From a virus (taxonomy: Duplodnaviria; Caudoviricetes), in IMG/VR virus record IMGVR_UViG_3300027608_000064, positions 1 through 41,807 of that record: 41,807 nt of DNA; one strand, 5' to 3'. Positions 18,085 through 21,808 of this stretch are shown here, in pieces; positions within the stretch are counted from its first letter, which is position 1; every line of letters begins with the position of its first letter. The notes under the pieces are model-generated. The model worked only from the letters and a program-made list of their open reading frames with translations. It searched no databases and had not been told where the DNA came from. A program made the position numbers and the translations under genes.

Positions 18085-18378
18085 ATGATCGAATCATTTG
18101 ACGAATCAGACAAATCTAAAAATAAAACTAACGATACTAAAACAAAAACACCGGTATTAGATAATTTTTCAAGAGACTTAATTAAGTTAGCAGAAGAAGG
18201 AAAATTGGATCCTGTTGTTGGTAGAGAAAATGAAATACATAGAATTGCTCAGATTCTTTCAAGAAGAAAGAAAAACAACCCAATTATATTAGGAGAACCA
18301 GGTTGTGTTTTAGGGGATACTTGGATTGAGGTGGAAAAGATTTCAGATGTCAATACTCACAATATTGAAACTATGTGA
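18085..18378 (+). CDS. clpC: ClpC N-terminal fragment (73-aa N-extein) fused to a 24-aa N-intein
   Basis: [11 protein letters not shown]...[32 protein letters not shown] then intein block [11 protein letters not shown]. Likely start is ATG 18085, after a TAACTTTA promoter-like element at 18048. Confidence 0.92.
18304..18375 (+). mobile_element. Split intein N-part (IntN, 24 aa)
   Basis: [28 protein letters not shown], directly after GEPG of the Walker A motif. Confidence 0.9.
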
Positions 18379-18423
18379 TATTTATAGTTAGGTTGTGGTA
18401 TTTCCCACATCCTGTATAATGTT

Positions 18424-19602
18424 ATGTTAATTAAAAAAAGAGGTAAGACAATATTTGAGGTTTTAACTATTAAAGATTTTGAATCCTTTATAGTTAATGA
18501 AAGTTTTTATAAATACTTTATAAAATTTGATGTTTCACATAAAAAAGAAATCCAAGAATTGATTGAAAAGACAGATTTTGTAAATTACAAACAAGTTAAA
18601 CCAACAATTAAATCCATTTTAAAATACCCCGATACTATATACAATAAAAAATTTTTAAAGTGTATGGGGTGGGAAAATCAAGACATTAAGAATTTTATTG
18701 TTAAAAAACAAAAACAAAACAGTAAAAAATTATCGGATTTAAAAAAAAATAATCCCGATCATTATAAAGATAAGACAACTACCAATGTTGAGTATTGGGT
18801 TAAAAAGGGTTATTCTATTGAGGAATCTAAAAACCAAATCAAACAAAGGCAGAGTACGTTTAGTTTAGAAAAATGTATAGAAAAGTACGGTAAGGATAAA
18901 GGGAGGGAAATGTTCGACGAAAGACAAAATAAATGGATTAGAAGTTTAAAAAACAAAACAAATTATTCTGAAATACAAAAAAGTAAAAGTGGTTTTAAAT
19001 ATAATGAAAAAAGTCAATCAGATATTCTAAGACATTCTGGATTTAAAGAAAAAATAAATAACATTGTCACACATTGCACCACAAATAAAAACATTAATGA
19101 TTTTATTGATTGCGTGTTATCTAAAGATGATATTAAAAGATATTCAGACTTGTCTCCATATATTAGTAGTAAGATAATACAGAATTTTTATCAATCAACA
19201 AGTAAAGAATTAAAAAATATTATTTATAGTAAAATTAACTTAAACCAAAATAGACAATATTACGGAATACCAACTTACCATAACGGTATAAGATATAAAA
19301 GTGTAGGTGAGTATCGGGTGGCTTTATTTTTAGAAAAAAATAACTTAAATTTTGTTTATGAAACTAACTACCCTAATAGTAATATGAAATGTGATTTTTA
19401 CTTACCTAAAGAAAATATTTACATTGAGTTTTTTGGGTTATTAAATGGTAAAAATTTAGATAAATTAGATCGGGTTTTGGGATTATATAAAGAAAAAATG
19501 AATTATAAAATTAAATTTTGTGTGGATAATGATATTAATTTAATATATGATTTAAATGAAAATAAACTAATTGGAAAAATAAAAAGTTATTATGAGGGTT
19601 AA
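18424..19602 (+). CDS. Free-standing putative homing endonuclease (C-terminal PD-(D/E)XK/Vsr-like domain)
   Basis: C-terminal KSVGEYRVALFL...YE...CDFYLPKENIYIEFFG and N-terminal basic repeats (EYWVKKGYS.EE, IEKYG...G). Sits between the intein halves and is more AT-rich than its flanks. Confidence 0.75.
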   Translation: MLIKKRGKTIFEVLTIKDFESFIVNESFYKYFIKFDVSHKKEIQELIEKTDFVNYKQVKPTIKSILKYPDTIYNKKFLKCMGWENQDIKNFIVKKQKQNSKKLSDLKKNNPDHYKDKTTTNVEYWVKKGYSIEESKNQIKQRQSTFSLEKCIEKYGKDKGREMFDERQNKWIRSLKNKTNYSEIQKSKSGFKYNEKSQSDILRHSGFKEKINNIVTHCTTNKNINDFIDCVLSKDDIKRYSDLSPYISSKIIQNFYQSTSKELKNIIYSKINLNQNRQYYGIPTYHNGIRYKSVGEYRVALFLEKNNLNFVYETNYPNSNMKCDFYLPKENIYIEFFGLLNGKNLDKLDRVLGLYKEKMNYKIKFCVDNDINLIYDLNENKLIGKIKSYYEG

Positions 19603-19990
19603 AATTGAGGAGTTTTTTAATTTGATCGAGAACGAGGGTGGAACATATAAAGTTAAAACACCATCCGGATATAAATTAATTGGTAATTTATATAAAAAAG
19701 AAAATAAAACCTGTTTTGAAATAAAACTTTCAAACGGGTTAGGGTTATCCGGATCTGAAGACCATTTAGTTGAGGTGGACGTTAACACAACCAATGAAAC
19801 TGTCGAATATATTAATGATTCGTTTTGGGTTAAATTAAAAAATATTAACGTGGGTGATTTTGTATATTGTGAAGATAATAACATTTATGAGGTTATTGAA
19901 ATGTCAGAAATTGGAGTTCACAATACCTACGATTTGGAGGTTTTAGATAACGAAAGAAAATACATATCTAATGGTGTGGTATCTCATAAT
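19592..19990 (+). mobile_element. Split intein C-part (IntC, 133 aa)
   Basis: VKIEEF, block B LSGSEDHLV, WVKLKNINVGD, block F TYDLEV, and block G YISNGVVSHN followed by +1 Cys. Confidence 0.92.
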
Positions 19991-21808
19991 TGTGGTAAAA
20001 CGGCCATTGTTGAAGGTTTAGCCAAAAAAATATTTGAGGGTGATTGTCCCCAAAACTTATCAGGAAAAAGAATTGTTTCTTTGGATATGACATCAATTGT
20101 TGCGGGAACAAAATATCGTGGTCAATTTGAAGAAAGGATGAAGGTTATCATTGAAGAATTATATGCGAATCCTGATATCATCATTTTTATTGATGAAATT
20201 CACACAATGATTGGTGCCGGTAATTCATCAGGATCAATGGACGCTTCCAATATATTCAAACCGGCACTTTCAAGAGGAGAACTTCAATGTATCGGAGCAA
20301 CAACATTGGAGGAATATAGAAAGAACATTGAAAAGGACGGAGCATTGGAAAGAAGATTCCAAAAGGTAATGGTTGACCCATCAACGAAAGAAGAGACGTT
20401 AATAATACTCCAAAACTCAAAAAACAGATACGAAGATCACCATAAAGTAACATATAGTGACGACATATTAAAATTATGTGTTGAACTTGCTGATAGATAC
20501 ATTACAGATAGAGAATTTCCTGATAAGGCGTTTGATATTATTGATGAGGTTGGGGCAAGATCTCAGGTTGAGATTAAATTACCTGAAATTATTGAAGATT
20601 TAAAAAGGCAAGCACAAGGCATTAAAGACGAGAAGGTAAAAGTTATTAATAGTCAAAGATATGAGGAAGCAGCAAACTTGAGAGACAAAGAAAGAAAAAT
20701 TTTAAATGATTTAGAAAGAGAAAAAACCGAATTTGAAAAAAATAGAAATCTATATAAAAGAGAAGTTACTGAGGACGTTGTGTATGACGTTGTAACCTTA
20801 ATGACTAAGATTCCGGTCAGTAAAGTATCAACCGATGAGACAGAACAATTAAGAACCCTAAAAGAAACACTATCAACAAAGGTTATCGGACAAGAAGATG
20901 CCGTTGCAAAGATATCAAGAGCAATCCAAAGAAATAAAGTGGGGTTAAATGATCCAAAAAAACCAATATTTAGTGGGTTACTAATCGGTAATTCGGGTGT
21001 TGGTAAAACGGAGTTGGCAAAACAACTTGCAAAACATATGTTTAATTCTGAAGATTCGTTAATCAGATTGGATATGAGTGAATTCTCTGATAAAATCGCA
21101 TCGTCAAAATTAACAGGAACATCTCCAGGTTATGTCGGATATGAGGATGGTTCACCGTTTTTAAATAAAATTAAAAATAAACCATATTCGGTTATTTTAT
21201 TAGATGAGATAGAGAAAGCTCACCCTGAAATTTTTAACGTATTTTTACAAATGTTAGATGAAGGGTTTTTAACGGATGGTCACGGAAGAAAGATTAATTT
21301 TAAAAACTGTATTATTTTGATGACATCGAACATAGGTACAAAAATTGTTCAGGATTTTGGTACGGGAGTAGGGTTTTCTACAAATTCGAAAGTTGAGAAA
21401 AAAGAGGAGGAAATTAAATCAGTTTTAGAGAAAGAATTATTTAAAAAGTTTGCTCCTGAATTTATAAATCGTTTTGATGAGATTATTTATTTTAAAGACC
21501 TTAACGAAAGTGATCTATTAAAAATCGTTGATTTGGAACTTGAAAAAGTACACAAAAGAATCGAGGGTATTGAGTTTGATTTGGAGGTTGGTGAGAGTTT
21601 GAAAAAACATATCATTTCTGTTGGTACCGACACAAGGTTTGGGGCAAGAATACTAAAAAGAACAATACAAAAATGGGTGGATGATTCGGTAACTGAAAAG
21701 ATATTATCGGATAATCCAGAGAAGGGATCTAAATTTATCTTGTCATATAATGAAACGGATAAAAAAACTGAGGTTAAAGTAAAAAAACCAACAAAAAGAA
21801 AAAAATGA
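19592..21808 (+). CDS. clpC: C-intein fused to the ClpC C-terminal fragment (rest of AAA-1, UVR middle domain, AAA-2)
   Basis: After HN come CGKTAIVEGLA, GTKYRGQFEER, IFIDEIH, ALERRFQ, PDKAFDIIDE, second Walker A GNSGVGKT, LLDEIEKAHP, and the ClpP-docking loop GVGF. Confidence 0.95.
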   Translation: MRVKIEEFFNLIENEGGTYKVKTPSGYKLIGNLYKKENKTCFEIKLSNGLGLSGSEDHLVEVDVNTTNETVEYINDSFWVKLKNINVGDFVYCEDNNIYEVIEMSEIGVHNTYDLEVLDNERKYISNGVVSHNCGKTAIVEGLAKKIFEGDCPQNLSGKRIVSLDMTSIVAGTKYRGQFEERMKVIIEELYANPDIIIFIDEIHTMIGAGNSSGSMDASNIFKPALSRGELQCIGATTLEEYRKNIEKDGALERRFQKVMVDPSTKEETLIILQNSKNRYEDHHKVTYSDDILKLCVELADRYITDREFPDKAFDIIDEVGARSQVEIKLPEIIEDLKRQAQGIKDEKVKVINSQRYEEAANLRDKERKILNDLEREKTEFEKNRNLYKREVTEDVVYDVVTLMTKIPVSKVSTDETEQLRTLKETLSTKVIGQEDAVAKISRAIQRNKVGLNDPKKPIFSGLLIGNSGVGKTELAKQLAKHMFNSEDSLIRLDMSEFSDKIASSKLTGTSPGYVGYEDGSPFLNKIKNKPYSVILLDEIEKAHPEIFNVFLQMLDEGFLTDGHGRKINFKNCIILMTSNIGTKIVQDFGTGVGFSTNSKVEKKEEEIKSVLEKELFKKFAPEFINRFDEIIYFKDLNESDLLKIVDLELEKVHKRIEGIEFDLEVGESLKKHIISVGTDTRFGARILKRTIQKWVDDSVTEKILSDNPEKGSKFILSYNETDKKTEVKVKKPTKRKK

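Follow-up and report, generated by a model that had tools for sequence, protein, structure and literature searches.

When a gene for an AAA+ unfoldase is broken within its own ATP-binding loop, the question arises of how, or whether at all, a whole protein can be made from the pieces. This question is raised by a clpC-like gene in the window, meaning here the whole stretch of 41,807 nucleotides (nt) of the IMG/VR virus record IMGVR_UViG_3300027608_000064 (Caudoviricetes). The gene is divided between two open reading frames (ORFs) on the same strand, each an in-frame fusion to one half of an intein, and a nuclease-like ORF lies between them. We hold with considerable confidence that the two ClpC halves are joined by protein trans-splicing through a VidaL-like intein with a short N-terminal half (IntN) and a long C-terminal half (IntC).

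The first ORF (18085-18378, + strand) encodes an N-precursor of 97 residues (aa). Its first 73 aa are ClpC (N-extein, 18085..18303), without the Clp N-terminal domain and ending with GEPG of the Walker A motif in the first AAA+ domain (D1), and the following 24 aa, beginning with Cys1, are an S1-type IntN (18304..18378 with the TGA stop; coding positions 18304-18375). The last ORF (19592-21808, + strand) encodes a C-precursor of 738 aa, in which an IntC of 133 aa (19592..19990), containing blocks B, F, and G and ending with His-Asn, is followed by a C-extein of 605 aa (19991..21808) that starts from CGKT with Cys at the +1 position and includes the rest of D1, a putative UVR-like middle domain, and the second AAA+ domain (D2). 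The IntN stop and the Met of IntC are separated by a gap of 1,213 nt, and the frames of the two halves differ. Excision of the cassette at 18304-19990 (1,687 nt) yields a 678-aa protein with the D1 Walker A P-loop exactly restored, and 651 of its 678 residues (96%) are identical to those encoded by the uninterrupted gene of a related locus, L021 (678 aa). The first-pass annotation, made from the sequence alone, had proposed a clpC fractured in Walker A by an atypically split intein whose exteins restore the P-loop once joined, and this ORF anatomy is borne out in the window as well as in 32 distinct split alleles.

Misassembly might give the same appearance, as might a dead pseudogene or an intron removed at the RNA level, but the probability of any of these appears to be close to nil. 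In its favor, the contigs of four runs (X1-X4), not raw reads, were aligned to the window, and the nuclease ORF of one relative (L001) is broken. However, not only does a contig of the possible source run (X1) cover 18258-20300 with 0 differences, but a run from another study (X2) provides exact contigs at 18253-19026, over the IntN stop, and at 19269-19623, over the IntC start. The junctions at 18376 and 19592, for which the first-pass annotation had advised a check with spanning reads, are therefore both crossed by independent data, in contigs. X3 gave short scattered pieces only, and a contig of X4 joins 18302 to 19990 and skips 1,687 nt, which fits an intein-free allele at the DNA level.

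The relatives of the locus bear on the same alternative. Using C-precursor residues 1-145 as the query, the homologue search gave 560 candidates (lengths of 405-1292 only), of which 139 were homologues of the IntC-first protein, making the element a common one in metagenomes; among the 120 listed, all start with IntC, and 117 have exactly 133 aa before the junction. The allele census covered 257 loci (L001-L173 and L193-L276): the 104 loci with both halves represent 33 alleles, another 27 loci were excluded because they were incomplete or belonged to other hosts, and the remainder, mostly intein-free, were uncounted. The 33 alleles comprise 19 with the cassette, 13 split without it, and one contiguous; together with the intein-free loci, all three forms for which an alignment of relatives was suggested earlier (intein-free, contiguous, and split) are thus present. 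The cassette alleles (gap of about 1.2 kb) contain an ORF of 382-393 aa in 17 cases, of 364 aa in one, and broken at 85 aa in another, whereas the gaps in the 13 split alleles without the cassette are 5-360 nt. Over all 32 split alleles, the gap ranges from 5 to 1,252 nt, and its length modulo 3 is 0, 1, or 2 in 8, 5, and 19 alleles, respectively; therefore, no readthrough or frameshift is shared among them, and gaps of 5-11 nt are too small for an intron. This range, with all three frame offsets, argues against an artefact or an intron. So does purifying selection, which the ratios of nonsynonymous to synonymous polymorphism (pN/pS; window versus 12-13 alleles) indicate for both clpC halves, being 0.15 for IntN residues 1-14, 0.31 for the IntN tail, 0.31 for IntC, and 0.14-0.16 for the exteins, with synonymous sites near saturation.

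A different way to join the halves would be ribosomal bypassing, in which the ribosome hops from the last IntN codon to the ATG of IntC and makes a contiguous precursor that is spliced in cis. One observation weighs against trans-splicing here: the last IntN codon, just before the stop, is ATG in 22 of the 32 split alleles, identical to the IntC start. Further, a hairpin is predicted downstream of the IntN stop, and the existence of a contiguous allele makes a cis form plausible. Nevertheless, the codons are unmatched in the other 10 alleles (ATC three times, and TTG, TTA, TCA, AAC, ATA, AAG, and AAA), in 19 alleles, that of the window among them, the gap measures about 1.2 kb and holds an ORF, and the known bypassed regions mentioned in PMC2677866 span tens of bases. 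Bypassing is thus very unlikely in our estimation.

Trans-splicing, the reading that we prefer, is consistent with the type, fold, and residues of the intein. A sequence search of the PDB with IntC returned VidaL as the top match (E 0.0019; CatC, E 0.069), with IntC residue 5 aligned to VidaL residue 28 and about 20% identity between VidaL and the window intein. For the structure, the contiguous allele (L015:3947-4399, a 151-aa mini-intein on a single contig) was modeled with a predicted local distance difference test score (pLDDT) of 93, and its top Foldseek match was VidaL (6vgv; E 1e-11, TM 0.83), in agreement with a HINT fold, as is the predicted complex of the window halves. The earlier description of a short IntN and a long IntC, 24 and 133 aa, respectively, is thus upheld, with VidaL as the best match in both sequence and structure. 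The secondary structure of the model runs from strand 7-12 and strand 17-22 to helix 23-33, and since helix 1 is located on IntC, the split falls after strand 2. This is the S1 type, with helix 1 on IntC and an IntN of 15-37 aa, as represented by VidaL and PolB16 (PMC13014065).

The window IntN consists of the first two strands and a conserved tail with an invariant His. One relative (L222) has an IntN cut to 18 aa, having lost the tail and its His, together with Thr at +1, and is a candidate for a natural minimal IntN.

All residues of a class-1 intein are present, namely Cys1, the block-B His, the C-terminal His-Asn, and the +1 nucleophile. Alignment of 14-15 alleles shows no variation at Cys1, S55/H58, H132, and N133, and all 33 alleles have Cys or Thr at +1. 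Block B reads S55-x-x-H58, the usual consensus being T-x-x-H, and a YDLEV block is also present. The predicted binding of IntN (with 8 extein residues) to IntC scored 0.86 compared with 0.02 for the best control (agreement between runs of 94% or more, partner pLDDT of 75 or more), a mark reached by 116 of 157 solved pairs and 2 of 215 mismatched pairs; the pass may reflect resemblance to solved inteins, on which ground it is to be expected. The charges of the halves count on the other side, IntN having a net charge of -4 and the whole IntC -10, with only IntC residues 1-50 being positive (+3). A simple pairing of opposite charges was accordingly rejected as not clean, as both halves are net negative.

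Predicted binding of this kind would also suit halves that assemble non-covalently through their intein pieces without any splicing, for which the fragmented NrdA of Aeh1 is said to be a precedent (PMC3045599). We give this very little credence, as the splicing residues and the +1 nucleophile are all kept and lineages with Ala at +1 appear to gain Cys along with the intein. Moreover, the P-loop itself is interrupted, after Gly and ahead of the residue that precedes the catalytic Gly-Lys, and a 157-aa intein retained there would be expected to block ATP binding.

The ORF between the halves encodes a presumptive homing endonuclease, free-standing and 392 aa long (18424..19602, + strand), which starts 45 nt after the IntN stop and whose end overlaps the IntC start by 11 nt. 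An intervening endonuclease had been claimed from the outset, and a Vsr/PD-(D/E)xK-like nuclease fold is indeed predicted for the C-terminal domain (residues about 278-392). The model has a pLDDT of 88 and a predicted template modeling score (pTM) of 0.39. In the structure comparison of this domain, I-Bth0305I (3r3p) came top (Z 9.2, root-mean-square deviation 3.6, 90 residues) and Vsr (1cw0) scored Z 8.1, unrelated rows lying within about 1 of the top Z. Among the 98 homologues, a few are labelled very-short-patch-repair endonuclease, and in 37 aligned sequences D324 and E335 are invariant and E313 is nearly so. Several results speak against a nuclease function: the ORF has no match in Pfam, NCBIfam, or PHROGs; the Foldseek E-value is 0.27, with none up to 0.001; the EDxHD motif lacks its His, none occurring by sequence within the 14 residues that follow the conserved E-x-x-G in 17 of 17 intact alleles; and the uncorrected pN/pS of 0.45-0.84 points to weak constraint. 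On the model, the protein likely works like an EDxHD enzyme; it is not filed as one because the motif His is missing. Relatives present a series of nuclease decay, from the ORF broken at 85 aa (L001) to remnants of 360, 121, and 71 nt (L011, L013, and L014).

How the element came to sit in this gene is suggested by the trees. The extein tree (a quick tree of 99 sequences, with the long rows L016, L008, and L011 unsure) has intein-bearing rows scattered among intein-free ones; its 8 cassette rows require 8 changes, at least 5 of which are forced by starred branches, and the sister of the window is the intein-free L021 (Shimodaira-Hasegawa-like approximate likelihood ratio test, 98). Repeated loss could be partly behind this scatter, which tells against a history of gains. 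In 117 intein-free loci with full flanks, a redundant set chosen by similarity, Cys occupies the +1 position 78 times, Ala 38 times, and Ser once. L005 and L006 have Cys at +1 and their nearest intein-free relatives Ala, as expected if homing had co-converted the first flanking codon, although loss might also lie behind this pattern. In the IntC tree (35 sequences), the contiguous L015 falls within the split alleles, and its constrained placement in a distant group was rejected (approximately unbiased test, p 0.038; long branches and one contig). These sequence data suggest that the cassette moves in its pre-split form and, because of the nested position, that L015 is a re-fusion. It is likely through homing that the nuclease-like gene propagates the entire 1,687-nt cassette.

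The leader of the nuclease gene raises the further question of whether the element serves the phage. A TATTTAT motif (18379..18385, + strand) directly follows the IntN stop and, together with a predicted RNA hairpin (18389..18414, + strand), lies upstream of the nuclease gene. All 19 cassette alleles have the motif after the IntN stop, versus 1 of the 13 split alleles without the cassette, and it is found within 70 nt upstream of 14 of the 39 window genes, including those for the capsid and prohead protease (shuffled mean 2.1, maximum 8). It is likely a late promoter of the phage lineage, apparently carried by the cassette. The hairpin has -13.8 kcal/mol and z -2.9 in the window, with z of -0.1 to -6.5 over 20 alleles (weak in some). 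Rfam gave 0 matches in the region 17800-20200 at E up to 1, and ARAGORN detected no tRNA or tmRNA in the window.

An adaptive timing switch, in which a late C-half or condition-dependent splicing would allow active ClpC only late in infection, could draw on the presence of TATTTAT upstream of both the nuclease and IntC-ClpC in all 19 cassette alleles and on the conservation of the IntN tail with its His. We nonetheless regard it as quite unlikely, since the motif is lost in 12 of the 13 split alleles without the cassette, a 96%-identical relative is entirely intein-free, and the patchy distribution fits a parasite. Most likely, the element is a neutral parasite and not a regulator.

Under the preferred reading of trans-splicing by a mobile element, the N-precursor and C-precursor would each be translated on its own, with the IntC Met that overlaps the nuclease stop as the start of the C-precursor. 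The first strands contributed by IntN would complete the intein fold on IntC, and class-1 chemistry would then follow through the Cys1 thioester, attack by the +1 Cys, and His-Asn cyclization, releasing a 678-aa ClpC without the N-domain and with a whole D1 Walker A. The nuclease, kept late by TATTTAT and the hairpin, would cut intein-free alleles during co-infection, and the pre-split cassette would be copied into the cut allele with short flanks. The nuclease may then decay, after which the split genes would lie next to each other and on occasion be re-fused to a mini-intein.

Split inteins were also observed at other sites and in other hosts. A second IntN at the Walker A of D2 occurs in 16 of the 120 listed homologues, including P0008, P0021, and P0027, at the C-terminal end. 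L094:5601-10006 holds a full three-piece ClpC, whose D2-site split intein has its own DUF559/Vsr-like nuclease; the D2-site IntN of three-piece ClpC is 28-33 aa with an S2-like motif, and the D1-site and D2-site IntC share 31% identity over 120 residues. In L066, L067, L069, and L073, a different split intein (IntN 30-37 aa) occupies the same D1 Walker A three residues on; the ClpC there is full-length, its extein being N-domain-sized. Other P-loop ATPases (L227, L229-L231, L259, L266-L273, and L275) have related IntC-first ORFs at this same position, G|[ST]GK[TS] in sequence, as the window gene, and the public huge-phage record L174 (LR756500.1):1635-4897 has a fractured PIN-PhoH with a related nuclease between the halves. 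A wider and, to our mind, doubtful scenario is that cassettes of an S1 intein plus nuclease hop between P-loop ATPases of giant freshwater phages and have been domesticated in ClpC. The late motif or conditional splicing would then gate an adaptor-free unfoldase, and the three-piece alleles would represent an orthogonal S1+S2 pair performing tandem three-segment ligation.

The host protein itself is a ClpC-like unfoldase. The joined ClpC has ClpC as its best PDB matches (6em9 and 3j3t, E 6e-174) and contains two AAA+ domains with motifs that we take to be Walker A/B, pore loops, and the arginine finger. Since the N-extein has 73 aa (68-92 aa in most relatives) and the profile match begins at ClpA position 152, the protein is ClpC-like and N-domain-less. 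The middle domain appears to be short and may be UVR-like (Pfam UVR E 0.009, short of the cut-off), and D2 has GVGF at position 532, presumably a ClpP-docking-type loop. The window is a T4-like phage fragment with genes for the gp23 capsid, gp20 portal, terminase, and prohead protease; the public runs best matching it are labelled as freshwater or lake metagenome, and related phage records have lengths of 190-320 kb. A search for ClpP (PF00574) in 4 such records, at least 90% complete in 3 cases, was negative; therefore, the ClpC likely works with host ClpP or as a stand-alone chaperone. Directly upstream of clpC, at 17523-17888 (- strand), lies a divergent gene for a 121-aa protein with two UVR motifs, a possible ClpC adaptor, and L094 has a similar ORF. 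Other neighbors encode a rhomboid-domain protein (16346-16942), DUF2927 (21858-22469), an M20/M42-like peptidase (23538-24584), and a pyrimidine-dimer glycosylase (26561-27052).

With regard to novelty, no GenBank phage record covers 80% of IntC-ClpC, for which 171 matches are partial, and none does so for the nuclease, with 3 partial matches. At its sensitivity, the GTDB scan gave no close cellular copy, only 18 loci with short, weak C-terminal matches (E 1e-5 or worse), which were excluded from the allele census. The first-pass annotation knew of no described case in ClpC. This stands for a split ClpC, as none was found in the searched literature, although supplements of the original VidaL/AceL reports could list such loci; the available parts of PMC12880540 and PMC6892783 contain no split ClpC, and those of PMC5784728 deal with ClpP only. 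It does not extend to Clp ATPases at large or to the layout, which has been known since 2009. One bacterial intein each in ClpA and ClpB was catalogued, in Prevotella sp. CAG:1092 and Thiorhodospira sibirica (Novikova et al., PMC4760082), likewise in COG0542 Clp ATPases but bacterial, not phage; the word "split" is not present in supplement file 2, within the portion of that source available. Novelty is limited to the split ClpC case because of these catalogued inteins. The split ClpC looks unpublished, a known kind of selfish element in a new host protein.

Dassa et al. 2009 (PMC2677866) described fractured genes, among them an atypically split terminase, in which split inteins occur with a homing endonuclease that is free-standing. 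The order of host N-part with IntN, spacer, endonuclease, and IntC with host C-part is the same (spacer 27-51 nt there, 45 nt in the window), the endonuclease overlaps IntC by 6-69 nt there and 11 nt here, a hairpin and a late-promoter-type motif precede the endonuclease in both, and endonuclease-less variants occur among those genes as among the ClpC alleles. Their atypically split terminase has an IntC of 122 aa, compared with 133 aa in the window. However, the motif differs (TATTTAT on the sense strand versus TATAAATA), the host is a Clp ATPase instead of an enzyme of DNA, nucleotides, or packaging, and the window nuclease is without the EDxHD His, unlike those endonucleases. I-Bth0305I shares with the window nuclease the C-terminal Vsr-like fold, a separate N-terminal region, and the association with a fractured gene, whereas the window nuclease has no His downstream of D324/E335 and a longer N-terminal region (PMC3239194).

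Among inteins, VidaL (6vgv) likewise has its break behind the second strand, helix 1 in IntC, Cys dependence, and a short IntN, although its IntN is 16 aa versus 24 aa with the conserved extra tail in the window, and the hosts differ. AceL-TerL, GOS-TerL, and Cat (S2) resemble the window intein in their short IntN, long IntC, and phage origin, but S2-type inteins are split after helix 1, which the window intein is not (both comparisons drawing on PMC13014065). The second intein of related ClpC alleles (IntN 28-37 aa) looks S2-type by motif. As for the host, the window protein and ClpC (6em9, 3j3t) have in common two AAA+ domains, all core motifs, and what appears to be a short middle domain, and differ in that the former is without the N-terminal domain and phage-encoded.

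The locus adds dozens of natural VidaL-type inteins with a short IntN (18-26 aa), which lend themselves to protein semisynthesis, and candidate orthogonal intein pairs come from the three-piece alleles. Further, the unusually full allelic series of empty, split with nuclease, decaying, lost, and re-fused forms suits the study of split-intein spread and of the reversibility of fission. The textbook concept is unchanged unless regulation is shown; compared with the systems known to date, in which fractured genes encode enzymes of DNA, nucleotides, and packaging, their range now takes in a proteostasis motor.

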